In this document: positions 189 through 49,301 of the stretch, one piece after another | Position numbering within the stretch: position 1 is the first letter of the stretch | Layout of the letters: each line of letters opens with the position of its first letter | Virus record (IMG/VR): IMGVR_UViG_2700989413_000006 | Span: 1-64,000 of that record | Direction: 5' to 3' (one strand) | Source of the DNA: a virus | Lineage: Duplodnaviria; Heunggongvirae; Uroviricota; Caudoviricetes | Length of the DNA: 64,000 nt | Made by a program: the position numbers and the translations under genes | The notes under the pieces: generated by a model | Seen by the model: the letters and a program-made list of their open reading frames with translations, nothing else | Databases searched by the model: none | Told to the model about the DNA's origin: nothing

Positions 189-206
189 TAGTCAGTGCTT
201 ACTGAT
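189..206. promoter_or_regulatory. Degenerate copy of the genome-wide dyad motif (AGTCAGTGCTTACTGATT) in the leading non-coding region
   Basis: Matches the AGTCAGT..ACTGAT arms of the repeated palindrome, with 2 central mismatches. Confidence 0.35.
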
Positions 207-1380
207 TTTTCAAGTGTAAGAAGTTTGGCTGAAACAATTTTTTAACAACAGAATCCACCGCTCCCTTCGGTCGCTCCATGCACATTGCACAACTCCTCTC
301 TCTATGTGTTATTACTCTATAACCGCCTATACACATACTTCCTATTGTTCTTACTCTCCGTGTATGATGAATTGTCCTTCTAGCTATACTTAGTGAAATC
401 CTTATTGTGTATAGTGTTCAGTATGTACTTATCATTATCCGTGTAGTTGTTAGAGTTTTTGTCTGTATTGATTGATTGTTTTTAAGATCGTTTGCAATTG
501 TTCTATTGTTTATCAGTTTGATTATTTAGATAGCATTATGAAAATATGCTGTTTGAGTTAAATTTGCTGTTCTATGGCTTAGTTGTAGATTAGTTGGATT
601 GTTTGTCAGTAAGTTATCTATTCTTTAGTACGTTTTGGAATTTAGTTGTCTGGTGTTTGAATAGTAAGTCCGTATTATCATATTACCGTGTGTATGTATG
701 GTCGTATGGTAATACGGTAATATGATATTTCAGCCTAGAGATAAATTGCCTCATTCTGTGCCTGATAATTTGTTATAGCGTTCAGGTAAAAAATACAGCC
801 TTAAAGTAAATTTGCTATTTGCGCATAGAATCGTTTTAGAGAGCGTTTTGCTTGTGTTTAGTATGATTCATCATCTTAGTGATAAAAGCGTCTCTAACGC
901 GCGTTTATAAGCGATTATAAGCGGTTTAAGTGAGAGTGTTTGCTTATCTGGTTTTAGCATGGTTCGGCGGGTAAGTAATGAATTAGTTACAAGTCAGTTT
1001 ATTTGTATAAAAATACTTATAAATCAATGATGTATAATAATATCTCTATAACTGTCTGTTTTTGCTTATTTTAGATAAAAAAGAGCCAGCTCTAAAGAGG
1101 GGCGTAGAGCTGGCAAAAAGGTGACTTGTGAGACTTTTTTCTCTATCAATACACTCGAATATTCTATCTAAAGAGCTTCGTTGTCTTGATGTGAGTATTG
1201 TATAAATACCGAGTAGGATTGAGAAGGGGAGGCGTTTATATCGCCTGTCGTGTTTCCTATTAAACTCATTATAATGATTGCATGTAACGTGAATTGAGTA
1301 CGGCGTATGTTGACCGCATTAATTGTTCTTGGAGCGATAGGGCTCATTTATTTGATGCTCAAAGCCATGAAGTGATTAGA

Positions 1381-1422
1381 CAAAAAGCCCTGAGCATTCA
1401 GGGCTATTATTTAGTTATTTTC
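1381..1422. terminator. Bidirectional rho-independent terminator downstream of the ArdA-like gene
   Basis: AGCCCTGA-GCAT-TCAGGGCT hairpin at 1386-1405, flanked by an A-run at 1382-1386 and a T-rich run at 1406-1422. Confidence 0.6.
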
Positions 1423-1494
1423 TAATTGCGCAAATATCTGCTCAAAAATGATCGATTTCATAAAAAAAGTGCAAATATTTGCTCAATATTGGTC

Positions 1495-2037
1495 TTAATA
1501 GTTTCGGTAAACCTTTCCTTCAGCTACAAGATAATCACTAATTAAAGCGTCGCGCCCGTAACGTTCATAGTCGAAATAACCTTGAATGTCCTCTGGTATT
1601 TCCAAAGCAGAACATTCATCAATTAAATAGCGTCCAAAATCATCGTCATTTTCGTAGTCACACACGTAACGATCTTCGTGCCACTCTTTAACGTTTGACC
1701 AATCAGCATAGTTGCCTTCAACTAATGCAGCGTATGTGCCAACTTCTTTAACTTCATCAAGATCAAGGCTTACTAAAAACTCAATTAAAGTTTCAAGCAT
1801 TTTGAATGATGAGACTTTTATCTCTTCGTTGGCCCAAGTGTCTTCTAGCTGCCAAAACTCTATCTCTACATCGCCTAACTCATCTATGAAGTCGTCGTAT
1901 TCATCAAAGTAAAGGTTAAAACCGTGTTGATGCGTAAAGCTGAAGCCTTCTAAGCGAAAACGTTTCTTGTTATCAGGGTTAGAAAACTTCGCTAAAAACT
2001 GCTCTATAGTCACTTGATCGTTAGTTTCGTAAGTCAT
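1495..2037 (-). CDS. ArdA-like antirestriction protein (highly acidic DNA mimic)
   Basis: 180 aa, ATG at 2035-2037. Very acidic composition with an IDYE(R/A)YGRD-type C-terminal segment as in the ArdA family. Sits at the edge of the gene block next to a large non-coding region. Confidence 0.45.
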   Translation of the reverse strand: MTYETNDQVTIEQFLAKFSNPDNKKRFRLEGFSFTHQHGFNLYFDEYDDFIDELGDVEIEFWQLEDTWANEEIKVSSFKMLETLIEFLVSLDLDEVKEVGTYAALVEGNYADWSNVKEWHEDRYVCDYENDDDFGRYLIDECSALEIPEDIQGYFDYERYGRDALISDYLVAEGKVYRNY

Positions 2038-2172
2038 TTTAAAAATCTCTTTGCTTGTTTCGATGAAGTAATTCTCTCAATCGGTTTTTGGACAAACAAT
2101 TTGTGGCTTAGGCGTTGTTATCTATAAAGAAAAACCGCTCACGATGGAGCGGTTAAATTAGTGGACTTTAAT

Positions 2173-2619
2173 TTAAAGACCATGATCTGTGGTCGTAAAA
2201 TCACTGTAATAAAGAGCGTTAGTGGCGGTGTCTAAATGTATTTTGGAAGTCATTTCAAAATATTCTTCACTCTCTTCGCAAACTAATTGATTATATTCGG
2301 AGTAACCGTCGGCAATAAGAGCAACCGCCTTTATTACAGCATCTATGAACTCTTGCTTGTATTCATCTAGGCGCATAGTGGTTTGTAGCTTTAAACCCGT
2401 TTCTGCACTTGTGTAGGTGTTCATGTGCTTATCTGGTTCGCCAATGTATATCTCAGCGAGATAAGGTTGATCTGCGGATATTATTGCGGTCTGAGCCTTA
2501 TTAGAGAAAAGCTCGTTTACTGCGCGGTATATGGTGACGATTGGTTGCATTATGTTTAACTCTATTTGTTTCGATAGAGTAATTTTCACAATTGAAAATA
2601 GGGGAGACAAAGGCAACAT
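2173..2619 (-). CDS. Hypothetical protein
   Basis: 148-aa ORF in the same orientation as its neighbours. AAGG lies 6 nt upstream of the ATG at 2619. Confidence 0.4.
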   Translation of the reverse strand: MLPLSPLFSIVKITLSKQIELNIMQPIVTIYRAVNELFSNKAQTAIISADQPYLAEIYIGEPDKHMNTYTSAETGLKLQTTMRLDEYKQEFIDAVIKAVALIADGYSEYNQLVCEESEEYFEMTSKIHLDTATNALYYSDFTTTDHGL

Positions 2620-2744: not shown

Positions 2745-2963
2745 TCATGCCTTCTTGCCTCTTCCCACAAACCAATCAACCGCCTTACAGAGCATTTCGT
2801 CTTTGTGCCAATCTTCAATCACACGAGTTTCATCTCGGTCATGTGAGAAGAGCGGGCCACAGTAGTTGTTCCATGTCATGTATACATATCGCCCATCAAG
2901 TAAGCGCAATCTAAAAGTTGGAACCAGGCACACGAAACCGCCGGGCATTCTTCTGCAAGTCAT
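2745..2963 (-). CDS. Hypothetical small protein
   Basis: 72-aa ORF whose stop overlaps the start of the downstream gene (translational coupling). Confidence 0.3.
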   Translation of the reverse strand: MTCRRMPGGFVCLVPTFRLRLLDGRYVYMTWNNYCGPLFSHDRDETRVIEDWHKDEMLCKAVDWFVGRGKKA

Positions 2964-3301
2964 GCTGCTTTCTGCTCCGCTTTTTGAATCAATGTGCGGA
3001 GGCGCCAGATATACGTTTGCGAATAGCCATTGTCCGTCTTGATCGGTATTGTTTTGAATCCGCGTGCCTCAGCTTGCGCAACTAGCTTTTTAGCTCTCTC
3101 TAAGCTGCCAATATGCTCTAACGCTGTCTTTGGCTGTGGTAACTTGCCACTCTTGCGTAGCCTTGCAATGTTTGAGTTGATCGTTCCTACAGTTCTGTTC
3201 AGCTCCTTTGCTATTTCAGCAATTGGAGTGTTATTAGAATGTAAGGTGATTAGCTTATTAATTTCACCTGTTGTCCAATAGCGAACCTTTGCAATGCTCA
3301 T
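2960..3301 (-). CDS. GcrA-like DNA-binding regulator
   Basis: N-terminal W-T-x-E...L...IAxxLxRTxxxIxxxIxRLR pattern typical of the GcrA N-terminal domain. 113 aa. Confidence 0.5.
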   Translation of the reverse strand: MSIAKVRYWTTGEINKLITLHSNNTPIAEIAKELNRTVGTINSNIARLRKSGKLPQPKTALEHIGSLERAKKLVAQAEARGFKTIPIKTDNGYSQTYIWRLRTLIQKAEQKAA

Positions 3302-8546: not shown

Positions 8547-8560
8547 AGTCAGTACTGACT
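8547..8560. promoter_or_regulatory. Dyad motif AGTCAGTACTGACT (perfect core)
   Basis: Intergenic, 65 bp upstream of the ATG of 8082..8489. Confidence 0.6.
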
Positions 8561-9090: not shown

Positions 9091-9093
9091 TGA

Positions 9094-12660: not shown

Positions 12661-12679
12661 CAGTCAGTGATGACTGATC
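12661..12679. promoter_or_regulatory. Dyad motif variant CAGTCAGTGATGACTGATC
   Basis: Intergenic; differs from the consensus at the central dinucleotide. Confidence 0.5.
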
Positions 12680-14763: not shown

Positions 14764-14783
14764 TATAGTCAGTACTGACTGAT
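14764..14783. promoter_or_regulatory. Dyad motif TATAGTCAGTACTGACTGAT (perfect)
   Basis: Intergenic. Confidence 0.6.
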
Positions 14784-16147: not shown

Positions 16148-16167
16148 TAAGTCAGTAGTGACTGATT
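16148..16167. promoter_or_regulatory. Dyad motif variant TAAGTCAGTAGTGACTGATT, with a degenerate second copy at 16127-16143
   Basis: Intergenic. Confidence 0.5.
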
Positions 16168-21543: not shown

Positions 21544-22400
21544 GCTGCTTCCTTAAATTGAAGTTCGATTAATTTTCGATGCTGTACAAAGCCATCGAAA
21601 TTCCCATGTAGATGTTTGTTTTGCCATTCGCCTTTGAACAACTTCACTAACCACGGATTGCGAATATCTGGTGTGGCTTGGTGTTCAAATGGAGAGGCAT
21701 GTAGCGGCTCAGAACCCACTAGCTTTTCGCAAAGGCGAATATCCTTTTGGATGTCTGGCGCTTTACCGTCATGCCGCAAGTAGGACACACGACAACAACG
21801 AGCCGCCGACACTTGCAACAAAATGTCGGTTGGATACTTTTCGCGTTCTTCATCCAGAATGTACGGAAGGTGCCACTCATTAGGGGCCAATAAGACAGGT
21901 ATTGATTTTTCTAGCGCAGCCTTCATTAATGCAGTTAAGGCAAAAATGGTTGGGTCCGCATCTTCGTGATGGCGTAGCTCAAAAAAGTTATCGAAGCTTG
22001 TCGCTGTTAAAACCACTTCAATAAATTGGAAAGGTTCTAAAATGCGATTAACAACTTGTTTGTGCAGACCAAGATCGTCAGCCATGAAACGTGCGGTATT
22101 TACTGCATTTTTAGCAGCTTCCAACCATGCTTCACGCGCAAGCTCCTTTTTGTACTCATTCACCTCTTCCCAAGCTTGCATACCAGCTTGGTTTTTACCC
22201 CAATGAACAGGCATTGCCGGATTTGCTTCAACTTGGTTAATCAACTTGATAACAGGGATGGCACGCGAGCTTGAAGCATTGCGACTAAATACGCGGTGGG
22301 TCATCACTTCACTGTGAATAAAGCGCGGATAACGCAGCTGAAAGGTAGTAATTCGCTTACCTTCATGGCTGCAAGAATCCGCAATAATTTTGACTTGCAT
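21540..22400 (-). CDS. thyX: FAD-dependent thymidylate synthase ThyX
   Basis: ThyX signature RHRxxxxxS (THRVFSRNASSSR). 286 aa. Confidence 0.85.
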   Translation of the reverse strand: MQVKIIADSCSHEGKRITTFQLRYPRFIHSEVMTHRVFSRNASSSRAIPVIKLINQVEANPAMPVHWGKNQAGMQAWEEVNEYKKELAREAWLEAAKNAVNTARFMADDLGLHKQVVNRILEPFQFIEVVLTATSFDNFFELRHHEDADPTIFALTALMKAALEKSIPVLLAPNEWHLPYILDEEREKYPTDILLQVSAARCCRVSYLRHDGKAPDIQKDIRLCEKLVGSEPLHASPFEHQATPDIRNPWLVKLFKGEWQNKHLHGNFDGFVQHRKLIELQFKEAA

Positions 22401-22467
22401 TGTTGGGTAACACTCACTTTTTAAAAAGAGGTGACTAATGCCACCCCTCGTTCTCTGAGCGTTAAAG

Positions 22468-22488
22468 TATAGTCAGTACTGACTGATC
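22468..22488. promoter_or_regulatory. Dyad motif TATAGTCAGTACTGACTGATC (perfect)
   Basis: In the divergent gap between thyX and the toxin-antitoxin operon. Confidence 0.6.
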
Positions 22489-24431: not shown

Positions 24432-24476
24432 TTCTTTATTCCATGAAAGAGGGGCGTTAAAAACACCCCTGCATAA

Positions 24477-24496
24477 TAAGTCAGTAGTGACTGACT
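24477..24496. promoter_or_regulatory. Dyad motif variant TAAGTCAGTAGTGACTGACT
   Basis: Between nrdA and nrdB. Confidence 0.5.
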
Positions 24497-27863: not shown

Positions 27864-27924
27864 CTGTTGGTGATCCAAAAACCTAATAAATAAAATATTA
27901 AGGCGACAAATCGCCGCCTTAATA

Positions 27925-27945
27925 GTATAGTCAGTACTGACTGAT
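27925..27945. promoter_or_regulatory. Dyad motif TATAGTCAGTACTGACTGATC (perfect)
   Basis: Intergenic; adjacent to a GGCGACAAATCGCC hairpin. Confidence 0.6.
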
Positions 27946-28557: not shown

Positions 28558-29190
28558 TTACCACACTGCCACATTGTTTTTTAAACTTTGAATCTTTTGC
28601 TCGCGCACACAGCGGAGCTTCTTGATTTCCGCTTTTGCCTCTTGGATTGATTTGATCGCTGGTCTAAATGACAAGCTGTCGAAAACTTCCGTCAGCGTTT
28701 CATGCAATCCGTTAAAAAGCTGACGGCCACGATTTATATCAACCATGATTTCTGCAAAATCGGCAGCAAAAGCGGGTCTGAAGCGGAGGTGAATTAAATC
28801 AAGGATGTCCTCTTGAACTTTCCAAAAGTCCATTTGCTCAATGAGGCTTTCATTTATGCCAGCCTTAAACAAAAGGAATGATTCTCCACCCAAAAACTCT
28901 CGCTGCGTCCAAGAGTCCGTACCGCTTTTATAGATTTTTCGAACCTGAATATTCCCACCCTGAGCCAACATAAACTCGTTAGCAAATGACAGAGGGGAAA
29001 ATTCAGAGTCGTTAGCATTCATATCAAGTTCAGCATTCATTTGATGCACAACGCCAGAAAGGATTTCCTTCACTTTTGAAGCGAGTTTTGCATCCTCATT
29101 TGCGCACAAATTCAAATGCTGCTGAATTAAACTGTCCTCCTTTTCTAGCTGAGCGAGGACTTCATCCTCAATAGCTTCATAGATGTTCAC
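28558..29190 (-). CDS. Hypothetical protein
   Basis: 210 aa. Confidence 0.4.
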   Translation of the reverse strand: MNIYEAIEDEVLAQLEKEDSLIQQHLNLCANEDAKLASKVKEILSGVVHQMNAELDMNANDSEFSPLSFANEFMLAQGGNIQVRKIYKSGTDSWTQREFLGGESFLLFKAGINESLIEQMDFWKVQEDILDLIHLRFRPAFAADFAEIMVDINRGRQLFNGLHETLTEVFDSLSFRPAIKSIQEAKAEIKKLRCVREQKIQSLKNNVAVW

Positions 29191-29235
29191 AAATGCTCTC
29201 CTTGCAATTAATGTGTGAATTTGTATGCCCTTAAC

Positions 29236-29281
29236 GAAAAACGCGCTAATACGCGCAATCTGTGCGTATTAGCGGTATGTT
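29236..29281 (-). terminator. Rho-independent terminator after sbcC (minus strand)
   Basis: CGCTAATACGC-9 nt-GCGTATTAGCG stem, followed on the minus strand by CGTTTTTCG. Confidence 0.55.
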
Positions 29282-29290
29282 TAGACGGGA

Positions 29291-31243
29291 TTAAACGAGA
29301 TTTGCACCGCTCACAGTTGAGTAACCATTTTCCTTAGTGACTACCACAACATCGTCAATCCAATCTCGCAGCTCTGAATGCGACACAACGATCACGGTGC
29401 CTCGTTCTCGTGCTTTTCGCTCAAGCACACCCATAAGACGTTCAAGACCTGATTTATCCAATGCATCATCAATTTCGTCACCGATGAACAAACTAATCGG
29501 CTTGGTTGCGCGACTAGCAACCAGATCTTGCAGTGCTAAAGCGGTAGCTAAACGAACCTTACGTTTTTCACCGCCGCTCAAACCTTTAAATGACTCTCCG
29601 CCCGTATTGTCACGGACATCGATTGTGAATTTTTCTTTAAGCTCTTTTTTGCTGTTAAGCGTCAAGGTCGACCAAACCGCATGAGTGTTGCCGTCAGTAA
29701 GTGCGCCGAGATAGTCTTCGGTTCGCTCATTCAAGAACGGCGTAACTGTATCGAGAATATGAGCGCGCACACCTGATGGGCCATAAATCAAAACCGCATG
29801 TTCATGTAATTCAACTAACGCTTGCAATTCCTGCACTTCCTGATCAATTGCAGAGTTCTTTGCGATGTAATCCGCAATTTTTGCTTGTTGGTCAGCTTCC
29901 ATTGCTGAGAATGGATTCGCCTCATTCATTACATCTTTTGCGCGCTTTTTGATTCTTTCAATGTCCTTGAGATTGCGGTCAATCTCAGAGCTTGACGAAG
30001 TAAATGCAGCAATTGCGCCTTCAACAGCAGCCTTGTCAGCATAGAGCTTGCGAACGTCCAGCGAATTGTTTTGAAGGAAGTCATTGAGGTTCTTCTCAGC
30101 CGCTTCAAATTCAGCTTTCACCTGTTCCATTTCGGCTTTGGCTTTCAGCGCATCTTGTTTTGCAACTTGGGCTTGATTCATTTGAACCGACCGCGCTTGC
30201 TGTAAATCACTAGCGCAATATTCTTTACCGCACTGTGTGCAAGGCGTACCAACTAAACCGTCAATGCCTCGAATTTTGGTCGCTAAATTATTTAAATTAG
30301 TTTTAAGAGAAGAATAATTATTATTAGTGATGCGGTACTTGATACCCAAGTCATCACGGATCTGAGTTAATTTCTTTGCCTCATTAACTAAATCTTCCGC
30401 TTTACTAATCGCGGTTTCAATACTTTGTTTCTCGGCATTGAGAGCGTTAATGTCGGTATTGCCCATTTGGACTTTGATGTCTTCAATAGCCTTCTTCAGC
30501 GGTAACGCTTCGCTCAACACAGCTCTAGCGCGTGACTCTTTTGTGTCGTCAAACTGCTTTAATTTCGCTTGTGTCTCAGCCAGTTGACTCTGCATGGTCG
30601 CAAGTACCGTCGCAAAATTATCGCGTATTGTGAGCTTATTTGAGAGCTTCGCTTTAACTTCGGCTAACTTACGTTTTGCAATGGTGTGCGCTTGCTCTAA
30701 AACCTGAATGCCAGCCGCCTCTTCAATTAAGACTTTCAGGTTTTTATCCGTAAGGGCGGGGAGGTTTGGCATCATTTCCTGACCCGCATATACGGATGAC
30801 ATAAAGACATCTAGCGTAGAACCAACAATATCAACTACAAGCTCCTGAGTTTCTTTATCAGTGCCTTTCGTGATGTTGCCATTAGGTAACTCATTGCCGT
30901 AAATATCGGTTTTTAAGACAATCAGCGCGTTTTTGTGTGTCGCATGTTTGCGGTGACGAGCGATTTTGTAACACTGTCCATTGTCATGAATCGTGAGTTC
31001 GACCGCACAATCCTTTTTGGCCGTCTTATTAATGACTAAATCTCCTGTAACGTCTCTTGCGGTAGTTCCGTAGAGGCACCAACATAAAGCGTCAACAATG
31101 GATGACTTACCTGAACCATTTGAGTCTGCGGATGAGTTGTCTTTGTTTTCACCTTGCACCAACAATAATCCACGATTAGCTAAATCAAGACGGGCTTCGC
31201 CAATCGTTAAGAAGTTATTAATCTTGAGTGTTAAAAATTCCAT
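29291..31243 (-). CDS. sbcC: SbcC/Rad50-like SMC ATPase (gp46-like)
   Basis: Walker A GSGKSS, zinc-hook CTQCGK, signature LSGGEKRKVRLA and Walker B LFIGDEID. Confidence 0.8.
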   Translation of the reverse strand: MEFLTLKINNFLTIGEARLDLANRGLLLVQGENKDNSSADSNGSGKSSIVDALCWCLYGTTARDVTGDLVINKTAKKDCAVELTIHDNGQCYKIARHRKHATHKNALIVLKTDIYGNELPNGNITKGTDKETQELVVDIVGSTLDVFMSSVYAGQEMMPNLPALTDKNLKVLIEEAAGIQVLEQAHTIAKRKLAEVKAKLSNKLTIRDNFATVLATMQSQLAETQAKLKQFDDTKESRARAVLSEALPLKKAIEDIKVQMGNTDINALNAEKQSIETAISKAEDLVNEAKKLTQIRDDLGIKYRITNNNYSSLKTNLNNLATKIRGIDGLVGTPCTQCGKEYCASDLQQARSVQMNQAQVAKQDALKAKAEMEQVKAEFEAAEKNLNDFLQNNSLDVRKLYADKAAVEGAIAAFTSSSSEIDRNLKDIERIKKRAKDVMNEANPFSAMEADQQAKIADYIAKNSAIDQEVQELQALVELHEHAVLIYGPSGVRAHILDTVTPFLNERTEDYLGALTDGNTHAVWSTLTLNSKKELKEKFTIDVRDNTGGESFKGLSGGEKRKVRLATALALQDLVASRATKPISLFIGDEIDDALDKSGLERLMGVLERKARERGTVIVVSHSELRDWIDDVVVVTKENGYSTVSGANLV

Positions 31244-32382: not shown

Positions 32383-32396
32383 AGTCAGTACTGACT
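32383..32396. promoter_or_regulatory. Dyad motif AGTCAGTACTGACT (perfect core)
   Basis: Directly abuts the stop codon of the upstream gene; 46 nt upstream of the sbcD ATG. Confidence 0.6.
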
Positions 32397-32398: not shown

Positions 32399-32797
32399 TT
32401 ATTTTGCCATATAAAAATGATGGTTGCCTATTTGACCAACATATTTGAGTTGTTTTTCCCAGCCTCGCTTACGATGTGAGAAAAAATGAGTAACACCGCT
32501 GTACCGTACTGGAACTGAAAATCGACCATTTAAGGCTTGTTCTGCAATTCGTTTTGAATCTTCCCAAGCTTCTTTTTCTTTTGGCTTTCCGCTGCTGTTG
32601 AGCGTTCTACCGCTTACCTTACTTGCAGTCCATGAGAATTGATGTTTTCTAAGGACTTCCTGACAAATTTTACTATTGTCGCCTTCAGCGCGGTTAAGGG
32701 TGGTAATTGCAACTAACTCTTTGCCTAGCTTTGGTTCACCTCGTGCTTCGTGGTAAATGTTCAAAGCTAGGCATGTCAGCGCGGATGTCAAAATCAT
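32399..32797 (-). CDS. SleB/CwlJ-like cell-wall hydrolase (Hydrolase_2) with an N-terminal hydrophobic segment
   Basis: NIYHEARGE...LNR motif region typical of the SleB family. In-frame ATG at 32795-32797 (the track starts at a TTG at 32842). Confidence 0.55.
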   Translation of the reverse strand: MILTSALTCLALNIYHEARGEPKLGKELVAITTLNRAEGDNSKICQEVLRKHQFSWTASKVSGRTLNSSGKPKEKEAWEDSKRIAEQALNGRFSVPVRYSGVTHFFSHRKRGWEKQLKYVGQIGNHHFYMAK

Positions 32798-33045
32798 TAT
32801 GGTCGAACTCCTTGTCGTATTTTCTTCACAGCTGAAAGCCAATTTTTCTCGGCTCTATGGCAAGAAGGAGAAACAGGAGCGGGGAGAGAAAAGCCCGTTT
32901 TTGGGTCTTTCAAGACAACGTGACCGCCTTTACTTTGGCGATATGTCCAACCTTCCTTAATTAAGGCTTTAGCTGCTCGGTCAATCGTGCGATTGTTAGA
33001 AATGTTCATATCTTTAAACTCTTTGTTTGTTTCAGATATGAACAT
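32797..33045 (-). CDS. Hypothetical small protein (weak HicA/YcfA-like resemblance)
   Basis: 82 aa, G...GGH..L...G...P pattern; translationally coupled (TAATG) to the hydrolase gene. Confidence 0.25.
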   Translation of the reverse strand: MFISETNKEFKDMNISNNRTIDRAAKALIKEGWTYRQSKGGHVVLKDPKTGFSLPAPVSPSCHRAEKNWLSAVKKIRQGVRP

Positions 33046-33079
33046 TTTAAAAGTAAGTCATTGGTGACTGAATAATAGG

Positions 33080-35214: not shown

Positions 35215-36711
35215 TTATTTATCGGACTTGGGTAAGAAAGCTTTTAACTGCTCCATGCCATTAGGTTCTGCGTTTAACTTGGCTACAAGCTCTTTGACAA
35301 AGTACTTCTTGCCATCTGTCCATGTAACACGAGGCTTGTTGTATTCAATCCAACCGCGCTTAATTAAATGATCAAGCATAGCGGCGATATGATCGAAGTA
35401 AGCCACATCAAATTCGTTGTACATCATGCGTAAATTGCACTCTTGGAACGGTCGAGTGAATTTTGTTTTGACGCATTGAACGGTAATGTTTTGGCCCACA
35501 AATTCCTTTTCACCAACTTCGTCTTTGTCCATGATTTTTTGACGACCTAAAGCCAAGCGTGCAGAAGCGTAAAACTCCATTGCTTTTCCGCCTGGTGTGC
35601 AGTTGTGAACAATGAAGCCATTGTCTTTGTTGCCCGCAAGGAAGTTGTGATTGCCCTCAATGGTAATGTCATACATGCGGGTGTCTAACTTCTTACCGCC
35701 TTCGCGAACCTCTGTGACGACAGCATAGGCGGTTTTGTGCTTATGAGTAACAAGGTGATAGCCAACCTTCACATCCTCTGCGTTAATCCAGCCACACTCG
35801 CGAGTAAGAATTTTGTGATCGTTTGTTGCTGTAACCGCAGATACGCCATTCTTCGTTTCAGGTGTAGTTGCTCGAATGTGAATCCAACGCTTGTCGGTAT
35901 CAGCGATAGAGCCATTGTCATGCCAATCAACGATAAATTTAGGCTCAATTTCACCTGTTGTTTCGTTGTATGACCACACTTCCTTGTTGATCTTGTTCTT
36001 AACGATTTCCTTGATTGTTGCAGTTGTGCCATCAACAAAGGGAATTTGAACGTCACCACGTAAACAGCGAGGATCACCAAACATAACACCCGGCTTTAAG
36101 CGCATTTGGTTGAGATATACGAATGTCGCGCTAAACTCTTCAGCTCGGTGACTCATGGTTTTTAACGTAGAAGACGTTACACGAGCCAGCGCCGTAGTGT
36201 CATTCATGGTGTATTCATCAATTTCTTTGCCAGCTTGCGATTTAGGTAATGCAGCAGCAATAGAGTCAAATACAACTAAAATTGGCGCATCATCAGGAAT
36301 AGCTTTAGATGCACGAATTAACTGGCACGCTTTAGCGGCAAGTGTGTTTCCTTCCTCCCATGTTGCAGGCTTCGCGTAAATCCAATATGGACGCTGTGTG
36401 TTAAGACCGAACCCTTCAGCCAAACGAACATCGAAAGAGCGTTCCCAGTCAATGAAGATTGCACAGCCACCCATTTTCTGAGCGCGAACCATCCATTCAG
36501 TAGCGTCAGCAGTTTTACCAGTAGATGATTCGCCAAATACTTCAACCATTCGACCAAATGGCAAACCGCCTTCGTAGCTTCCTGAAATAATGCGGTTTAA
36601 TTCAGGGTTGCCCGTATCAATCCAACGAGTGACCGCTTGTTCTGCATGGTTATCACCGATTGCTTTGAATAATGCGTCATTTAGTGCGTCGATTTGTGCT
36701 TGTGCTGTCAT
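35215..36711 (-). CDS. recA: RecA-family recombinase interrupted by a mini-intein in the L2 DNA-binding loop
   Basis: GGLPFGRMVEVFGESSTGKT, AIFIDWE, LNQMRLKPGVMFGDPR | intein | CTPGGKAMEFYASARL align colinearly with E. coli RecA ([32 protein letters not shown]). Probable start at the ATG at 36709-36711. Confidence 0.85.
   Translation of the reverse strand: MTAQAQIDALNDALFKAIGDNHAEQAVTRWIDTGNPELNRIISGSYEGGLPFGRMVEVFGESSTGKTADATEWMVRAQKMGGCAIFIDWERSFDVRLAEGFGLNTQRPYWIYAKPATWEEGNTLAAKACQLIRASKAIPDDAPILVVFDSIAAALPKSQAGKEIDEYTMNDTTALARVTSSTLKTMSHRAEEFSATFVYLNQMRLKPGVMFGDPRCLRGDVQIPFVDGTTATIKEIVKNKINKEVWSYNETTGEIEPKFIVDWHDNGSIADTDKRWIHIRATTPETKNGVSAVTATNDHKILTRECGWINAEDVKVGYHLVTHKHKTAYAVVTEVREGGKKLDTRMYDITIEGNHNFLAGNKDNGFIVHNCTPGGKAMEFYASARLALGRQKIMDKDEVGEKEFVGQNITVQCVKTKFTRPFQECNLRMMYNEFDVAYFDHIAAMLDHLIKRGWIEYNKPRVTWTDGKKYFVKELVAKLNAEPNGMEQLKAFLPKSDK
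35602..36066 (-). mobile_element. 155-aa mini-intein (no homing-endonuclease domain) within recA
   Basis: Starts with Cys (CLRGD, block A), has a TxxH block B (TATNDH) and ends ...FIVHN followed by the +1 Cys. Boundary codons checked at 36064-36066 (TGT) and 35602-35604 (AAC). Confidence 0.8.
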
Positions 36712-36721
36712 GTCTTTAATC

Positions 36722-37786
36722 TCAATTAGTTTGTGTCGGTAATGCTTGTTTGAACGGTTGAACAAAGTTATCAATTACGTTCAAAATGGATGCGAAGTTC
36801 AGCTCCGCGCATATGTCAATGAACTTGTCTAAGTCAAAGTTGCCTTTGTCTATTTCAAGGTGTTGCTTCTCTAAAGGATGTGGGTTGATCAGCTGCATGA
36901 TTTTCATATTTCGAATGAAGATCGAACGACCTTGACCGATATATGCGTCCATGTGTTTTTTCAGCTGTTTCTTGTGTTCCTTCTCGTTCTCTTCGTCACT
37001 TAGAGAGTCGTCACGTTGATAATGGAATAAGTTTTTCCATTGCTCTTTCGTGTAGGGAGAAGTGCCTTTCCACAATGAGCGTTGAGCTTTATTGGCTGGT
37101 TTAATTTCGCCACTTTCGCAACGTTGAATGAATTTACCAACCGAACCATGTTCAGCTAGAAATAACGGCGCTGTTGCTTCACCAATACCGCCAACTCCCG
37201 GTATGCAGTCAGAAGAATCGCCTTGAAGAGCTTTGCCCTCCAAAAACGCTAGTGGAGTTTTATAGCCAGTCTTTTCAACAAAATTTTCAAAGGTAATAAC
37301 CTTCTCATTTCGTTTGTCACGCAAATCTTGCCAACGCACACCACGACGTATGAGTTGCACCCAATCTACGTCGCCTGACGCAAGTAAGATTTCTTGATCT
37401 GGATTTTTCATGATTTGCTTTACTAAGATTCCAGCTAAGTCATCAGCTTCATGAATGTATGAAAGAATCTGCGTAATGCCTAAAGCAGATAGAGCCGCTT
37501 TGATAAACGGTAACTGCGCTTTGTAAGCTTCTTTATCAGCGACCTTTTCAGGTGTATCAGCAACGCGCTTAATTTTGTATTCAGGGCACATATCAAAGCG
37601 AAATTGAGCTTTTCCATCCCATAGCACATAGATTGTTGCTAACGGGTTGCGGATGCGTAATTCGCGCACTGTACGAAGAAAACCGTACACTGCCTGAGTT
37701 TGCATAACACCCGAATGCAGTTTTGTAGCGTGATGAGCTGCGTAACCAATAGAGTTCGCATCAATTAAAATCGTTAAATGTGGCAT
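36722..37786 (-). CDS. 5'-3' exonuclease / flap endonuclease (Pol I 5'-exo / T4 RNase H family)
   Basis: LIDANSIGYAAHHA N-terminal acidic cluster and H3TH-like region. GAGGG SD upstream of the ATG at 37786. Confidence 0.8.
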   Translation of the reverse strand: MPHLTILIDANSIGYAAHHATKLHSGVMQTQAVYGFLRTVRELRIRNPLATIYVLWDGKAQFRFDMCPEYKIKRVADTPEKVADKEAYKAQLPFIKAALSALGITQILSYIHEADDLAGILVKQIMKNPDQEILLASGDVDWVQLIRRGVRWQDLRDKRNEKVITFENFVEKTGYKTPLAFLEGKALQGDSSDCIPGVGGIGEATAPLFLAEHGSVGKFIQRCESGEIKPANKAQRSLWKGTSPYTKEQWKNLFHYQRDDSLSDEENEKEHKKQLKKHMDAYIGQGRSIFIRNMKIMQLINPHPLEKQHLEIDKGNFDLDKFIDICAELNFASILNVIDNFVQPFKQALPTQTN

Positions 37787-37842
37787 ATTTGATACCCTCT
37801 GACGAAGAAGCCACCTTGCGGCGGCTTCTTGTTGATTAACCG

Positions 37843-38730
37843 TTAAACTGGAATATCGAGGTCTAATAACGCTTCTAAATCAGTGTTAAGGTTGATCGGG
37901 GCATGCTCAACCGTTTGAGGTTGTGCAGGCTGAGTAACTTCGGTATACGAAATTTCCTCTGCGGTCTGTTGATATGCAGGTTGCGCAGCGCCGCCAGCAG
38001 CTAAGCCAATTGCAGCAGGTGCAGTACGAGGCGTATCGTTGCTTTGAGCGGGCGGTAACAAACCTACAACTTGTTGAACGTGTCCTAACGAGCGTTGTAA
38101 ACGTTCGTCATTTTCTTGAGAAACATATTCATCAAGATTGTTAAGTTTTTCGTAAACTTGTGGAGGAACTGGTTTGGTTTCGGCATCTGGTAAAACAGTG
38201 TATTTGGTGTTCATACCTGAGCCGTTTCGGTTAATCACAATGACTTGTGAACCGTTAGGATCAAATAAACGCGCACCCCATTTAGCCAATACATCAAAGA
38301 TTGCGCTAAATACTGTTTTAGGCACTTCTAAGATTTGCGGATCGTTTGGACGGTCAGAATCTAAAGCCAAAACGTTCATTAAATAAGTTTGGCGTGAACC
38401 ACACTCTTTTAATGCTTCGACTTGAGCTTCTGTTGTAGCTATGTTAGCAGCTTGTTTTAAAGCGCCACAGATCGGGCAATCCTTGCCAAATGTCTTATCT
38501 AAACAAACATAAGTAGACTGTAGATCACCGTTTGCATCTTTAATAAAGTGCATACCGAAATCGTGGAACCACACGTCTTGCTTACCTTGCTTCCAACCCC
38601 ACCCCGGAAGTAATACATAACGATTCGACCCATCTTTAGGTTTGAGAGTTTTCTCACGCGAGCGAATAGCGTTTTGCTTATTTGCTGCGGTTTCCATTAA
38701 TTTAGCTGGGTCTAAAACGAATTGAGTCAT
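37843..38730 (-). CDS. gp32-like single-strand DNA-binding protein with an acidic C-terminal tail
   Basis: LLPGWGW...FHDFGMHF...CPICG zinc-binding pattern and a C-terminal DLEALLDLDIPV tail. AAGGAA SD. Confidence 0.65.
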   Translation of the reverse strand: MTQFVLDPAKLMETAANKQNAIRSREKTLKPKDGSNRYVLLPGWGWKQGKQDVWFHDFGMHFIKDANGDLQSTYVCLDKTFGKDCPICGALKQAANIATTEAQVEALKECGSRQTYLMNVLALDSDRPNDPQILEVPKTVFSAIFDVLAKWGARLFDPNGSQVIVINRNGSGMNTKYTVLPDAETKPVPPQVYEKLNNLDEYVSQENDERLQRSLGHVQQVVGLLPPAQSNDTPRTAPAAIGLAAGGAAQPAYQQTAEEISYTEVTQPAQPQTVEHAPINLNTDLEALLDLDIPV

Positions 38731-38846: not shown

Positions 38847-38867
38847 TATAGTCAGTACTGACTGATC
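38847..38867. promoter_or_regulatory. Dyad motif TATAGTCAGTACTGACTGATC (perfect)
   Basis: Intergenic. Confidence 0.6.
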
Positions 38868-40037: not shown

Positions 40038-40066
40038 AAGTCAATCAGTAGTGACTGACTTTTCAG
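40038..40066. promoter_or_regulatory. Dyad motif variant (AGTCAATCAGTAGTGACTGACT)
   Basis: Intergenic between dnaE and the downstream gene. Confidence 0.45.
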
Positions 40067-43552: not shown

Positions 43553-44242
43553 TTAATTAGATTCAAATAACTTAGGATTAGCTATGAGTTTTGACTCAGA
43601 CTCAACGGCGATTTCAAATGCCTGAAAAATCTTGAAAGCTAATGATGTGTGACTGCCAGCTGTACCATCTGACCACTCAAGACGGCTCATATACTCGCTC
43701 TTCAATTGTGCGCGTGTTACACCGCCCTTAATTAACATTTCAATAAGGATTGCAAGCCACTTTGGGCCAGTCTTTTCAAGTGGATTAACACCAGCTGTAA
43801 GGTCTTTCTTGATACGGTCGACTAAACCAGTCTTACAAAGCTGTACCGCAAACGACTGTGCTTTCACTGGAAGCTCTGCGATTAGAGTGTTTTGATCGTC
43901 TGTTAATTTAAATTCGACCTTCTCAACCTTAGTTTTGCGCGGCACTTTCATTTCAGGCATAGGCATTTCTTTGCGTTCAGCTGCTTTTTCAGCCATTTCT
44001 TGCTTCATACGCTCTTCAATGCGCGCTCTCGCTTCTTTCTTGGCCTTTTCGTGTTTTTTCAAATAGTCCTCAACGTTAATTACGCCCTTAATGCGATTTA
44101 ACGTCTCTGTTACCGCTGGAATACATTGTTCAAATGCTGGACACTCTTTGCATACCGCACTTTCATGAGAAAAACATGAGACGGCACCAAAACAAGCGGG
44201 CGCATTCAATGCAGCTTTTTTATGTTCATTTTCGTGTGTCAT
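43553..44242 (-). CDS. Hypothetical protein with an N-terminal four-Cys cluster
   Basis: 229 aa. Confidence 0.4.
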   Translation of the reverse strand: MTHENEHKKAALNAPACFGAVSCFSHESAVCKECPAFEQCIPAVTETLNRIKGVINVEDYLKKHEKAKKEARARIEERMKQEMAEKAAERKEMPMPEMKVPRKTKVEKVEFKLTDDQNTLIAELPVKAQSFAVQLCKTGLVDRIKKDLTAGVNPLEKTGPKWLAILIEMLIKGGVTRAQLKSEYMSRLEWSDGTAGSHTSLAFKIFQAFEIAVESESKLIANPKLFESN

Positions 44243-44317: not shown

Positions 44318-45016
44318 TCACATAAGCTCATTGCTAAGCAATTTGCGGATCTCTTTTGCTGCTTCGTCGATTAGCACCAACTCCTTATTGTTTCTTGCTG
44401 TGCGTTTAACACAGCGCACAATAAATGCGAGATTGAGAGGCTTTACCATCGCTTTGTAGTGGGAGCTGTGAAATTGAAGCGCAAACTCTCTTTTGGCATA
44501 TTGAGCCTCATACTCGCGCTCAAATTCTTGGTCTGGATGAATAACCTGTTTAAGCAGCGCTACGGCCAAAGGACTTAATTGCTTTTGCACGTAGCTAAGA
44601 AGGTTGGATAGATCCACTTGTTCTAATGAGTTTTCCTGCTCTACGTCCAAAAAGACTTCGGCATCTACCGGCTCGCTTTCGTGATGATTCGCAAGGTCAA
44701 AGAAAGAGACTGTATTAATCGAACGGTCGCCAACAGCATTTTCGATAATGCGATTAATACGGTTATATGCCGACTTTACGAAGTAGGTCGAGAAACGAAA
44801 ATTTTGTTTCTCATCAAAGCCTTTGATCGTTTTCACGAAAACTTCAAAAAGTAGGTTGTGAATGTCTTCGCCGTCTTGAAGTTCGATCGGAACCTGCATC
44901 CCTGCGCTTTGCATATTGGCAACACGTTTTAAAATGTTGCTTGTTACTTTGTTGATTAAGCCAACATGCTCTTTGTAGAGTTCGTTTACTGATTTATTCA
45001 TGCCGCTATCTCCCAA
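44318..45016 (-). CDS. Divergent sigma-70-family sigma factor (putative)
   Basis: Region-2-like DGEDIHNLLFEVFVK..KGFDEKQNFRFSTYFVKSAYNRINRII (compare D.IQEG.IGL.KA..KFD...G.KFSTYA.WWIR.AI). Confidence 0.45.
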   Translation of the reverse strand: MGDSGMNKSVNELYKEHVGLINKVTSNILKRVANMQSAGMQVPIELQDGEDIHNLLFEVFVKTIKGFDEKQNFRFSTYFVKSAYNRINRIIENAVGDRSINTVSFFDLANHHESEPVDAEVFLDVEQENSLEQVDLSNLLSYVQKQLSPLAVALLKQVIHPDQEFEREYEAQYAKREFALQFHSSHYKAMVKPLNLAFIVRCVKRTARNNKELVLIDEAAKEIRKLLSNELM

Positions 45017-46312: not shown

Positions 46313-46333
46313 GATAGTCAGTACTGACTGATT
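46313..46333. promoter_or_regulatory. Dyad motif GATAGTCAGTACTGACTGATT (perfect core)
   Basis: Intergenic between the CobT-like and CobS-like genes. Confidence 0.6.
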
Positions 46334-46369
46334 ATTTAAATAACCCCAACTGACTATCTTGCTCACGAA

Positions 46370-48427
46370 TTACTTGAGAAGTAATGAGCGAAGCTCGCCA
46401 ATAACCGTGTTAGGTAAGTCGGCAACAGATCTCAAAACGACATTTTTTGGATAGAACTCTTTTACGCTTTGCGTATTGATTCCAATTCCAATAACTTCAA
46501 ATCCTGAGCGAGAAATTTCCTGAACGGTTGTTTTGAGGTGTTTGTTTAGCGTTGGGGTCGGGCCGCTACCATTTGGATTACCATCACTTAACACCATAAT
46601 GATTTTCCGTGCTTCTTTTTGAGCGCTTAGCCGCTGTGCCGCAATTTGAAGACACTCCCCATCAACATTCGTGTTTAAGAACCTAACATGAGGCAACCAT
46701 GCAAAACGATGGCGGTTTTCGAGCGTTAAGCGCTCATTAAACCCTTTAATGACTGGCATATATAAACCTTCCGTTCTTGTGTATCGAATCGTTTTGCCAT
46801 TATGCGTAAAGCTTTCTTTTGCGTGTGGATCACCGTTTTTAGTTGTGAATCCAATAACTTCATGATTAATGTTGAGACGGTCAAGAACAGATGACATTGC
46901 ATATGACGCTTGAGAGGCTGTGTTAATGCGTTCGCCCTTCATTGAACCTGAACAGTCAATTAAGAGGGTTACAGCGACATCTTTGGAACGATTCTCTTGT
47001 TTGCGACGGAATATACGGTCGTCTCTAACAGCTAAACGAGAAAGTGACGCCTGGTTAATTTTTCCTTGCCGTAAACCGTTCTCCCATGTTCTTGCTGATC
47101 GAGCAACCATAAGACGTTCCAAATCTTTTTGAATTGTTCCCGTAATTTTATTGGTTGCTCTATCTAAATCATCCATAAAGGACGATTTGTAATCTCTGCC
47201 AATTTTTAATGTTTCGATAACGTCATATCTGTTTGTATAAACGAGATATGGCGCAGTGCAAGCAAAGTCTTTTGCTTCATTGCTTAACTGAACGGCAAAC
47301 GAGGCGTCAAAATCATTCGCTGACTCCTTGTCGATCTCTTGCAAAATCGCCTTAGCGTCTAAATTAAGCTTTCTTAATTCCTTTTTCTTTTCTGACGTCT
47401 GATTCTCAGAGTCGCTAGACTCGTTGCCTTCATTGCTGTCGCCCTTACCATTCGATTTGTCAGACTTATTTTGGTGGCGCTCACTTTTACCATCTGATTC
47501 GTTCCCACCATCCTCATCTTCGGATTGACCGCCTTTACCTCCATCACCTTGTTCGTCTTGCTCATCAGCATCGCCTGAAGACTCACCGGCACCATCTTCT
47601 TCAGAATCGCCATCATCTCCCTCACCAGCGCCTTGCTGACCGTCTGCATCTGAACCTTCATCTTCGTCAGAATTTCCGCCACCTGAGCCGCCTGGTTGCT
47701 CATCTTCATCTTCGTTAGATTGACCATTTCCTTGTTGATCACATTCTTCTTCCTGTTGTTGATCTTGCGGGGGTTGTTTCTCGTCTTCGGGACTTTTTAG
47801 AGCTTTGTAAATTTCTTTAGCTAAGCGAACGGCATCCTGAGACGACTGCATTGATTGAAGTTGTGGCGCAAGGTGTTTGATGGCAGCATGAATATTTGGC
47901 AACAAATGAATCTTGTCGCGCATATAAATTTCAAAAGTTGATTGACCCGAAAGGCTGCGGAGATATGGAGTGGCCAAGATACCCATAATCTTTGTTTCAT
48001 CAACATCGGGATGCGCCATAACTTCTTTAAATTTCGGAGTAATCATCTCTTCTAAAAAGAAGTGTGCGGTGTGATCTAAGTTAGAACCAGAACCTCTAAA
48101 TTTTTCAGCCATGCATTTTTCGATGCGGGCGTCTTCTAAAATATTTGCGAGACTTTTTAAAAGGTAATCGCCAACGCTATTTAGGGCTTTAAAATCAGAG
48201 AAAAGAACATGTGCAACCTCATGATCTAAGAATCCCTGTATTGCTCTTATAAGTTCTTCTGATGCATTGTCCGAAAGGTACGGTAAATTGATAGAAATCG
48301 GATTTCCATTAATGTCAGACTTGACGTATGCTTCCATACCTATTTGAGTTACTTCAATTTTTTTCTCAATGAGAGCATTTGTGATTGCAACGATAGCGTT
48401 GCGTAAATTAGCAATGCGATTGTTCAT
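46370..48427 (-). CDS. CobT-like VWA-domain protein with a roughly 150-aa acidic low-complexity insertion
   Basis: C-terminal VWA MIDAS motif DCSGSMKGERI; central D/E/G/S/Q-rich region. Confidence 0.6.
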   Translation of the reverse strand: MNNRIANLRNAIVAITNALIEKKIEVTQIGMEAYVKSDINGNPISINLPYLSDNASEELIRAIQGFLDHEVAHVLFSDFKALNSVGDYLLKSLANILEDARIEKCMAEKFRGSGSNLDHTAHFFLEEMITPKFKEVMAHPDVDETKIMGILATPYLRSLSGQSTFEIYMRDKIHLLPNIHAAIKHLAPQLQSMQSSQDAVRLAKEIYKALKSPEDEKQPPQDQQQEEECDQQGNGQSNEDEDEQPGGSGGGNSDEDEGSDADGQQGAGEGDDGDSEEDGAGESSGDADEQDEQGDGGKGGQSEDEDGGNESDGKSERHQNKSDKSNGKGDSNEGNESSDSENQTSEKKKELRKLNLDAKAILQEIDKESANDFDASFAVQLSNEAKDFACTAPYLVYTNRYDVIETLKIGRDYKSSFMDDLDRATNKITGTIQKDLERLMVARSARTWENGLRQGKINQASLSRLAVRDDRIFRRKQENRSKDVAVTLLIDCSGSMKGERINTASQASYAMSSVLDRLNINHEVIGFTTKNGDPHAKESFTHNGKTIRYTRTEGLYMPVIKGFNERLTLENRHRFAWLPHVRFLNTNVDGECLQIAAQRLSAQKEARKIIMVLSDGNPNGSGPTPTLNKHLKTTVQEISRSGFEVIGIGINTQSVKEFYPKNVVLRSVADLPNTVIGELRSLLLK

Positions 48428-48443
48428 AATAGATCCTTAGCGA

Positions 48444-48467
48444 TTCAGTCAGTGATGACTGATTATT
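48444..48467. promoter_or_regulatory. Dyad motif variant ATTCAGTCAGTGATGACTGATTAT
   Basis: Just upstream of the CobT-like ATG. Confidence 0.5.
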
Positions 48468-48586
48468 TATGATCATATTATGACGATTTAGAGTTGGGGT
48501 GTATAGAGTTTTGTTTGGCTTCAGCAAGAGGGCGACAAATCACCGCCTCAATCTTGCTAACTTCACTAATGATATTCTTATAAAAA

Positions 48587-48787
48587 TTATGGATTTATCA
48601 CTCTAACTATACTTTTTGGAGCGCAGGTATTAATTACCTCAATGTCCCCTAAATTCAGATGCTTATAGCGCTTTATAGTGTAAAACCCGTCATTTAGCAG
48701 TGTTTCTACACCTTCTGTTTTTTCTAAAATTTCAGCAAGTTCATCCAAGTCTACAGTTTGGAATTGATCATTCAATGTCACAGTCAT
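48587..48787 (-). CDS. Hypothetical small protein
   Basis: 66 aa, GGTGA SD. Confidence 0.35.
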   Translation of the reverse strand: MTVTLNDQFQTVDLDELAEILEKTEGVETLLNDGFYTIKRYKHLNLGDIEVINTCAPKSIVRVINP

Positions 48788-48897
48788 TTAAATCACCATT
48801 CTGATTTATCAAGATTTTGAAGAGGCTATTAATATACGTCTCATCATTTCAGCCCCGTATATTATAGTTTGGGTTCGCTCAAAAGCTTTTAATAAAA

Positions 48898-49301
48898 TCA
48901 GTCAGAAGTGACTGTTTGAACATTTAAAAGCCAGTTGTTGATCGTATTCATAAATTCTCCTTATGTGATAATTAACAAAACTTAATACAGTGTGAAGTTT
49001 TGTAAGTTGATGGGGTTTATATAAACTGTTAATTTTTAGACAATTTATATAAACGGTTAATTTTAAATAGTTAATTTTGGACTTTCTACATTGCCATATT
49101 GTAATTTTTTCCTTTTTTGACTAAAAAAAATAACAAAAAATCTGGAAAAAATTAGTCCATTCAATCGAATACACTTTGCATTCGCTGCATCTAGTTTGTA
49201 AACTTGGGCGTATATAATTCACGAGTGACTGATTTTTTCTATAAAATTAGTCCCCCCACCACCTATAATAGTGCTGTAATTCAAAATCAGTCAGTTCTGA
49301 G
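48898..49301. promoter_or_regulatory. AT-rich divergent control region with three degenerate copies or half-sites of the dyad motif (48898-48914, 49224-49234, 49286-49301)
   Basis: About 600 bp non-coding, between the minus-strand block and the plus-strand HTH regulator gene. Confidence 0.45.

Follow-up and report, generated by a model that had tools for sequence, protein, structure and literature searches.

A dispersed palindrome in an Acinetobacter phage-plasmid

Analysis of a 64,000-nt stretch of DNA (positions 1 to 64,000 of IMG/VR record IMGVR_UViG_2700989413_000006; hereafter, the window) revealed a 14-bp palindrome, AGTCAGTACTGACT in its perfect form, that recurs between the genes of a phage-like block. 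We consider this palindrome the probable operator (probability roughly 65%) of the element's own XRE-family helix-turn-helix (HTH) regulator, which is encoded at 49389–49853. Judged from its sequence matches, the window is part of an Acinetobacter baumannii phage-plasmid of approximately 107–114 kb that is related to SSU5: positions 1–49000 matched 24–27 PLSDB plasmids at 99.9–100% identity, and the gene content is SSU5/pHCM2-like, with CobT/CobS-like proteins, DnaE, ribonucleotide reductase (RNR), ThyX, a gp32-like single-stranded DNA-binding protein (SSB), and siphovirus structural genes. The original prediction for this DNA had likened the repeats to the dispersed operators of a dimeric HTH repressor, as in phage P1, and this fits best, given the free centre, the arms kept throughout the family, and the covariation of the arms with the XRE protein. 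All of the evidence is computational, and the operator reading is supported at that level.

Census and intergenic placement

The 14-mer AGTCAGTACTGACT occurred exactly seven times in the window (starts 8547, 14767, 22471, 27929, 32383, 38850, and 46316), against 0.00 copies expected and none in 100 shuffles, which bears out the seven perfect copies listed originally; the coordinates given then were 0–4 nt lower because they took in flanking bases. When up to two mismatches were allowed, 15 copies were found against 0.18 expected, and a copy was recovered at every other place that had been named. The arms alone, AGTCA-N4-TGACT, gave 13 exact copies (0.09 expected) and, with up to one mismatch, 18 copies, 17 of which were intergenic, as had been claimed for the listed copies, and lay without exception at or below position 49302. 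The eighteenth (36832) lies inside a gene and looks like a chance occurrence. The earlier census was confirmed for the half-site at 49217–49230, but it had missed the copy at 33056–33069.

Several details of the original description changed. The perfect 20-mer ATCAGTCAGTACTGACTGAT was absent from the window, the best matches being two copies within one mismatch, and the GAT and ATC extensions of this 20-mer fell mostly on different copies. Instead of marking almost every intergenic gap, the palindrome occupied only 14 of the 35 annotated gaps that measure 40 bp or more in the equivalent block. Dyad symmetry holds for the core but not for the usage of the site: every non-palindromic variant is oriented alike relative to the genes.

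The complete 107-kb plasmid CP027608 contained 30 copies at up to three mismatches, including copies among the terminase, portal, capsid, tail, and holin genes. Although 87.7% of this plasmid is coding, 28 of the 30 copies lay outside annotated coding sequences. The perfect GTAC centre was confined to the replication/nucleotide-metabolism half of CP027608 (sites 768–53609), and CTAC and TTAC centres predominated in the structural/lysis half (sites 65801–104209); this split could reflect two affinity or timing classes.

A host REP-like repeat (named as an alternative in the original prediction), an uptake signal, or a miniature mobile repeat accumulating in intergenic DNA would share with the palindrome that it is short, palindromic, intergenic, and multicopy. 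However, the 17-mer ATCAGTCAGTACTGACT (palindrome plus flank) had only 21 scattered matches in 185,579 species genomes and none in Acinetobacter, so that the many host chromosome copies of a REP element were not seen and the palindrome is not a host repeat. The same arms also occurred in phages of unrelated hosts, and the word differed between two lineages of one host species. We regard an origin of this kind as having a negligible chance of being correct. The word was not found in the literature searched.

Orientation and promoter registers

The gene-strand logo of 29 sites in this lineage read aAAAaaTC-AGTCA[G/C/T]TACTGACT-[G/T/A]A. A left-flanking TC was present in 27 of the 29 sites and the mirrored GA in only 14–19, and within the centre position 6 varied 16 times and the mirrored position 9 twice. 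All asymmetric variants were oriented alike, and the sole reversed copy of the full plasmid (68414) precedes its sole reversed helicase gene.

The palindrome is tightly linked to promoter hexamers. In nine of the 17 window copies, a TAnnnT hexamer (TATACT, TATTAT, TACAAT, etc.) started either with the final T of the palindrome or on the next nucleotide, and further copies lay in a promoter spacer (8547 and 38850) or over a −35 hexamer (40043 and 49289); more than half of the window copies are thus fused to a −10 or −35 hexamer. Across the family (131 distinct sites), TAnnnT began at offset 0 in 35 sites and at offset 23 in 37 sites, compared with only 7 and 2 sites, respectively, in the mirror direction. 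Offset-0 sites (class I) were mostly TGAC-TATAAT without a −35. Among the offset-23 sites (class II), approximately half had a TTG beginning at the last T of the palindrome, which yields a −35 separated by 17 bp from a TATCAT-type −10; in these, the palindrome spans −48 to −35 and is centred at −41.5. Approximately 22 of the 37 class II sites represent the orthologous CobT/CobS junction, where the spacing was kept and the spacer sequence diverged; the window copy at 46316 is the member of this family-wide set. The arm TGACT was also considered as a −35 for a −10 located 17 nt downstream, and this was rejected because the offset histogram had no peak at 17–19.

Class II palindromes were in addition nested in a second conserved inverted repeat, CAGGAta-[AGTCA-N4-TGACT]-tgcgtATCCTGac (for example, in the relatives L032:11950–12010, L035:9590–9660, and L064:5580–5650). 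The 3' arm of this repeat falls in the −35/−10 spacer, and the repeat is absent at the orthologous window site 46316; its role might be structural, or that of a second protein site.

Conservation across the family

The family comparison was based on 80 loci around CobT-like genes taken from IMG/VR. The gene order XRE (divergent)–CobT–CobS–sigma-like–p229–DnaE was conserved, and AGTCA-N4-TGACT was the commonest 5-N-5 palindrome in more than 20 relatives with GC contents of 45–65%. At these sites the arms were fixed and the centre unconserved, and ATAAT very often followed directly. One lineage with 87% identity (L009) was too close to inform on flank conservation.

In the sister lineage represented by pAYP-A2 (pABTJ2 type), the phage block was only 60–80% identical, and the word found in the window (A-type) was absent, with approximately 40 copies of AGTAAGCGCTTACT (B-type) instead. 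In the B-type word, both arms were altered symmetrically (C4 to A and G11 to T), with TATAAT in the same overlapping register. The A- and B-lineages, which share a host species, carry distinct words and distinct regulators. SSU5 and the relative L051 carry dispersed TAAGT-N4-ACTTA palindromes instead. K-mer repeats of SSU5, L029, and L027 were examined as possible analogues and rejected, as they are clustered replication iterons, which lie around the plasmid replication gene (SSU5 [L007], 36000–38300; L029, 7540–7870; L027, 7380–8680).

The XRE-family regulator and covariation with the arms

The candidate binding protein matched PHROG transcriptional-regulator families, and its Pfam HTH_19/HTH_3 matches were below threshold. 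Its AlphaFold2 model contained helices at residues 25–32 and 39–45, with a predicted local distance difference test (pLDDT) score of 70–81 for the N-terminal domain, and placed R36 just before the recognition helix (39–45). A Foldseek search with the model returned the HTH domains of Stl, NHTF, HigA, ClgR, DdrO, and C.BclI, with probabilities of approximately 1.0 for NHTF, HigA, ClgR, DdrO, and C.BclI. The best sequence match in PDB was a weak one to an 'immunity repressor' (E = 0.19), and the domain scan detected no RecA-cleavable peptidase domain in the protein. Homologous-protein searches with the XRE and sigma-like proteins returned only near-identical sequences.

In the family alignment, the region around R36 follows the motif G-F-x-X-P-N-(V/I)-(L/I)-(S/T)-M, in which X is R36 of the window protein. 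Where X was K or R, arm position 4 was C in 191 half-sites and A in 7 (31 distinct loci), whereas with N, T, Q, or a deletion at X the counts were 63 C and 61 A (20 loci). The association of residue X with arm position 4 (pair 4/11) gave p = 5e-23 in a Fisher test uncorrected for phylogeny. Among 928 alignment columns from the XRE, sigma-like, p229, and CobS proteins, the residue-X column ranked first (z = 12.2; mutual information, 0.75 bit), and other recognition-helix columns of the XRE protein ranked third, fourth, and sixth. A neighbour-joining tree of CobS showed no fewer than four to five separate switches: in the pABTJ2 lineage beside L061, in L012 beside L059/L071/L072/L088, in L016, in the clade L078, L028, L036–L087, and in L086. 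It would be chemically sensible for K or R to read the G of a C:G pair and for Asn, Gln, or Thr to tolerate A:T.

The location of the sites also points to the XRE gene. Across 53 distinct loci, 40 sites lay upstream of the XRE start codon at a distance of up to 800 bp and 39 at the CobT/CobS junction, with almost none on the other side of the XRE gene. The control region of the window (48447–49302) holds four copies. The copy at 49289–49302 is 87 nt upstream of the plus-strand XRE ATG, and on the minus strand its arm CTGACT supplies the −35 of a predicted early promoter, CTGACT-18-TATTAT. Together with the sites upstream of the gene in relatives, these copies uphold the autoregulatory arrangement that had been suggested.

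A different binder, either a ParB-like protein (with KorB- or centromere-like silencing) or the small HTH protein at 2960–3301, would have precedent in that KorB-type global regulators use dispersed palindromes, and the full plasmid does code for two ParB-family proteins, one ParA, and several small HTH proteins. Yet the strongest covariation was that of the XRE protein, and the sites cluster at the XRE gene and not at the par genes; we consider another binder improbable.

The coordinates of the individual sites and candidate genes are summarized in Table 1.

Table 1. Palindrome copies and candidate regulatory genes in the window.
Feature	Position	Strand	Context
Hybrid-arm palindrome	190..203	-	AGTAAGCACTGACT on gene strand, then TACAAT in overlapping register; one arm AGTAA, as in sister lineage
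Perfect palindrome	8547..8560	-	Within 17-bp spacer of predicted TTGATC-N17-TATAAT promoter
Palindrome AGTCATCACTGACT	12662..12675	-	GA flank; -10 hexamer not found nearby
Perfect palindrome, class I	14767..14780	-	TATACT begins at last T
Palindrome AGTCACTACTGACT	16150..16163	-	TATTTT begins 1 nt later
Perfect palindrome, class I	22471..22484	-	TATACT; divergent gap, faces minus-strand thymidylate-synthase operon
Palindrome AGTCACTACTGACT	24479..24492	-	Then TATTAT; between RNR alpha and beta genes; hairpin next
Perfect palindrome, class I	27929..27942	-	TATACT; terminator-like hairpin starts near expected transcript start
Perfect palindrome	32383..32396	-	2 nt past stop codon; TATAAT 10 nt downstream
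Palindrome AGTCACCAATGACT	33056..33069	-	Then TACTTT; from arm scan
Perfect palindrome	38850..38863	-	In spacer of predicted TTGAAA-18-TATACT promoter; upstream of gp32-like SSB gene
Palindrome AGTCACTACTGATT	40043..40056	-	After dnaE; right arm overlaps -35 of predicted TTGACT-16-TATAGT promoter
Sigma-70-family sigma factor, divergent	44318..45016	-	Early operon; family profile match
Perfect palindrome	46316..46329	-	CobT-like/CobS-like junction; TATCTT overlaps; TATCAT exactly 22 nt downstream (class II register)
Palindrome AGTCATCACTGACT	48447..48460	-	19 nt 5' of CobT-like start codon
Control-region copy AGTCACTTCTGACT	48900..48913	-	
Control-region copy AGTCACTCGTGAAT	49217..49230	-	One arm mismatch
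Control-region copy	49289..49302	.	Common to divergent promoters
XRE-family HTH regulator, 154 aa	49389..49853	+	Candidate binding protein; divergent from early lytic operon
Two B-type palindromes, AATAAGCGCTAATT and AGTAAGCGCTTATT+TATAAA	58862..58909 (58862, 58896)	-	Between primase and DnaB genes
B-type palindrome AATAAGCGCTTACT	60850..60863	-	TATAAT begins at last T

Proposed mechanism

According to the operator reading, an XRE dimer would read the two 5-bp arms, AGTCA and TGACT, across a free 4-bp centre. At sites with an overlapping −10, the bound protein would cover −25 to −12 and shut out RNA polymerase, and at other sites, with the palindrome in the spacer or over the −35, polymerase would likewise be blocked. 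In the plasmid state, one protein would silence approximately 30 early, DNA-metabolism, structural, and lysis transcription units, and it would control its own divergent promoter. Where a copy leaves no room for a promoter, as with copies of the full plasmid that precede a start codon by 15 nt or 4 nt, it might act as a roadblock or take part in looping. At the −41.5 sites, among them 46316 and the holin promoter of the full plasmid, the effect may instead be activation, comparable to that of lambda CI on PRM or to that seen at C-protein promoters (PMC2175313). We infer both binding by the XRE protein and net repression from the sequence comparisons above.

A more elaborate proposal combines both promoter registers: one CI-like XRE protein would act as a two-way switch, repressing where it overlaps the −10 and activating at −41.5, while one residue would set the operator word and thereby the immunity group, and module swaps would import operators that the resident regulator does not read. 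We offer this only tentatively, with the odds against it as a whole.

Several points weigh against operators of the XRE protein as the explanation. The structure model of the protein reached only moderate confidence overall (pLDDT 64). Three relatives (L082, L031, and L081) lack K or R at residue X and yet have C-type arms. A column of the control protein CobS scored z = 10.9; phylogeny therefore contributes to the covariation scores, and the covariation is partly confounded by it. The covariation analysis covered proteins within 10-kb flanks, and the 113-aa HTH protein (2960–3301) and the ParB-like proteins lie outside these. The centre asymmetry of the lineage (position 6 variable, position 9 not) is unexplained by a symmetric dimer. 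Promoters with an overlapping −10 might need an activator rather than a repressor because they have no recognisable −35, and a centre at −41.5 is a classic activator position.

A possible activator- or sigma-dependent promoter element

The last two points bear on the main rival, an activator- or sigma-dependent element. Here the palindrome would be a positive promoter element at which an activator or a phage sigma factor recruits host polymerase to −35-less promoters, as Lpa does in P1; the XRE protein could itself be the bound factor, with a positive action at some of the sites. We consider this explanation unlikely, if less so than the others weighed against the operator reading.

The sigma-like gene does encode a protein of the sigma-70 family. 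A profile built from 18 sigma-like members matched SigA in PDB over regions 2–4 (E = 1.4e-12), whereas the single sequence remained below the Pfam and NCBIfam cut-offs. The sigma alignment found no related loci when searched against genome contigs; 146 PLSDB plasmid records hold a relative of the gene. A conserved gene for a protein of approximately 229 aa (p229; window 43553–44242) always comes next after it. Loci without the sigma gene had 0–1 exact A-type copies, which together with the genuine sigma-70-family protein favours a sigma-read element, but the sigma-less relatives L041 and L089 keep palindrome-plus-TATAAT sites, and neither the sigma nor the p229 columns covary as strongly with the arm base as the XRE column. 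A sigma factor moreover reads asymmetric elements as a monomer, which does not fit the joint change of both arms in the sister lineage. The phage sigma factor, which had been listed originally as a possible reader of the motif, was rejected in this role on account of the sigma-less relatives and the weaker covariation; it is associated with the system and not required for the motif.

For an activator more generally, promoters of class I combine a good −10 with the lack of a −35, but a dimer spanning −25 to −12 would collide with polymerase. The registers are exact, as activators need and repressors usually do not, and the centre of the second register, −41.5, is where class II activators sit; the same word nevertheless stands before early, middle, late, and lysis genes and before the regulator's own gene. 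P1 offers a precedent: its Lpa-dependent late promoters, with 11 copies per genome, pair an inverted repeat just upstream of the −10 with the lack of a −35 (PMC10695390). A P1-type late promoter was rejected for the palindrome, as no Lpa homologue was found among the plasmid ORFs at E ≤ 10 (phmmer) and the two repeats are unlike in length and spacing, that of P1 being 9 bp long (AAGTTACTT) and set apart from the −10. The palindrome occurs also before early and regulator genes. The promoter of a single-subunit (T7-like) polymerase was rejected too; the class I consensus slightly resembles CACTATAG promoters, but no such polymerase is encoded.

A possible RNA-level hairpin

An RNA-level hairpin, serving as a processing site, 3' stabiliser, weak terminator, or boxB-like antitermination site, would account for the position of the motif 2–18 nt past many stop codons and for its A-rich 5' and T-rich 3' flanks, and a consensus scan rated two copies as terminator-like. 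The core fold, however, reached only −3.2 to −4.0 kcal/mol, and the stable GC-rich stem with U-tract of an intrinsic terminator was not seen. Right-arm C-to-T variants (GATT) would keep G-U pairing on the sense strand, but the arms stay AGTCA/TGACT over 45–65% GC without drifting as compensating pairs, that is, they are fixed in sequence and not merely complementary. The registers relative to the −10 and −35 hexamers, precise to a single base, are a property of DNA, class I transcripts would exclude the hairpin, and the window had no Rfam match. The RNase III processing hairpin of the original prediction falls with this group, which we rate as very improbable.

Terminator-like hairpins lie just downstream of several sites on the minus strand (window 27880–27928, 24430–24478, and 22400–22470). 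At 27929 and 24479, the stem begins approximately where a transcript from the fused −10 would start; read-through RNA would therefore include the whole hairpin, and locally initiated RNA might not.

An imported replication/partition module

Window positions 48001–50778 were 99.96% identical to the A-lineage plasmid CP027608, and positions 49970–64000 were 99.7% identical to pAYP-A2. Because the two parts match different lineages, the window is a recombinant, and this pattern of identity indicates that the replication/partition module was imported from the sister lineage. The 0.8-kb overlap (49970–50778) includes a site-specific integrase gene (50182–50802) common to both lineages, and it is within this shared stretch that the crossover lies. 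The junction was not covered in one piece by any PLSDB record.

The absence of the palindrome from the plasmid module, as originally described, holds for the A-type word, but AGTAAGCGCTTACT-type palindromes are present there: those at 58862, 58896, and 60850 are intergenic, and those at 56138 and 56295 lie inside an ORF (56034–56642). A further AGTAAGCGCTTACT-like position is 59611. The native replication/partition module of the A-lineage does carry A-type copies (768 and 5968 in CP027608), and the module of the window lacks them because it came from a lineage with a different operator word. If the single-residue rule is true, the resident regulator should not read the B-type palindromes of the module.

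Other features of the element

The large ORFs of the element include CobT-like, DnaE, RNR, SbcC-like, and similar proteins. A megablast search of the phage block against a phage collection gave no match. One related plasmid record contained the resistance genes msr(E)/mph(E). A Doc-type toxin gene with a small gene 5' of it (possibly an antitoxin) lies on the plus strand inside the minus-strand phage block (window 22631–23412) and adjoins the divergent-gap palindrome at 22471. CP027608 has an annotated HicA-family toxin gene at 29172–29384, corresponding to window positions of approximately 32797–33045. Positions 1–1494 of the window are ORF-poor, with no ORF of at least 60 aa, no Rfam match, and one hybrid-arm palindrome (190); this region is part of a gap of approximately 2.2 kb without annotated genes in CP027608 (60675–62907).

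Comparison with known systems

In phage lambda, the divergent repressor and early operon (CI/Cro; OR, PR, PRM) share operators that overlap the hexamers of lytic promoters, and CI activates PRM from a position near −42. The window resembles this switch in its divergent regulator and early operon with shared operators and in one register centred near −42. It differs in that lambda has six operators at two loci, compared with approximately 30 sites genome-wide here, and in that no peptidase domain was detected in the regulator.

In P1, one immunity repressor, C1, controls many units through scattered operators, several of which lie at its own gene (PMC10695390). Both elements are phage-plasmids with dispersed operators, including some at the regulator gene. 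The P1 operators, as read from the P1 record, are 17-bp asymmetric sites resembling ATTGCTCTAATAAATT, whereas the site described here is a 14-bp palindrome of 5-4-5 structure and the candidate protein is of the XRE type; a phmmer search of all ORFs of the window and the full plasmid found no C1 homologue at E ≤ 10. Genomes of Cluster A mycobacteriophages (L5 gp71 and Bxb1) each have 20–30 stoperators, repressor sites that occupy short intergenic gaps and follow the direction of transcription; heteroimmune lineages differ jointly in consensus and repressor, and Cluster A includes some extrachromosomal members (PMC6550527). The approximately 30 oriented copies, and the difference of both word and regulator between two lineages, recall this system. 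Stoperators, however, are 13–14 bp sites without dyad symmetry that are bound by a monomer and are mostly promoter-free, whereas the palindrome is symmetric and promoter-fused. With an overlapping −10 at nine of 17 sites, the set as a whole does not look like stoperators that block elongation; the few copies without promoter room could act so. The palindrome is thus of the same functional kind as P1 C1 operators and Cluster A stoperators and a member of neither class, as both the protein and the site type differ.

In restriction-modification systems, the C proteins are small dimers of the XRE family whose targets are GACT/AGTC tetranucleotides; they activate when bound to a box abutting or overlapping the −35 and repress from an adjacent box (PMC2175313). 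C.BclI was among the fold matches of the XRE model. C-boxes have the form GACT-N3-AGTC, with the half-sites facing the opposite way and another spacing, and they serve a single local circuit rather than a genome-wide regulon.

Significance

The outcome is a regulon map (17 sites in the window and approximately 30 per element), a candidate regulator gene, and a proposed single-residue specificity rule. The two promoter registers, kept from 40% to 65% GC, form a compact natural promoter-operator cassette that offers a clean test of one HTH dimer acting at −18.5 and at −41.5. To our knowledge, nothing has been published on the silent maintenance or the lytic switch of these phage-plasmids, whose 105–115 kb representatives are common in clinical A. 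baumannii. The proposed specificity rule could be used to predict the mutual immunity of such elements, and, should the two-way switch prove true, it would provide a single-residue (K/R versus N/T/Q) immunity grouping in a large, previously uncharacterised family of phages and phage-plasmids.

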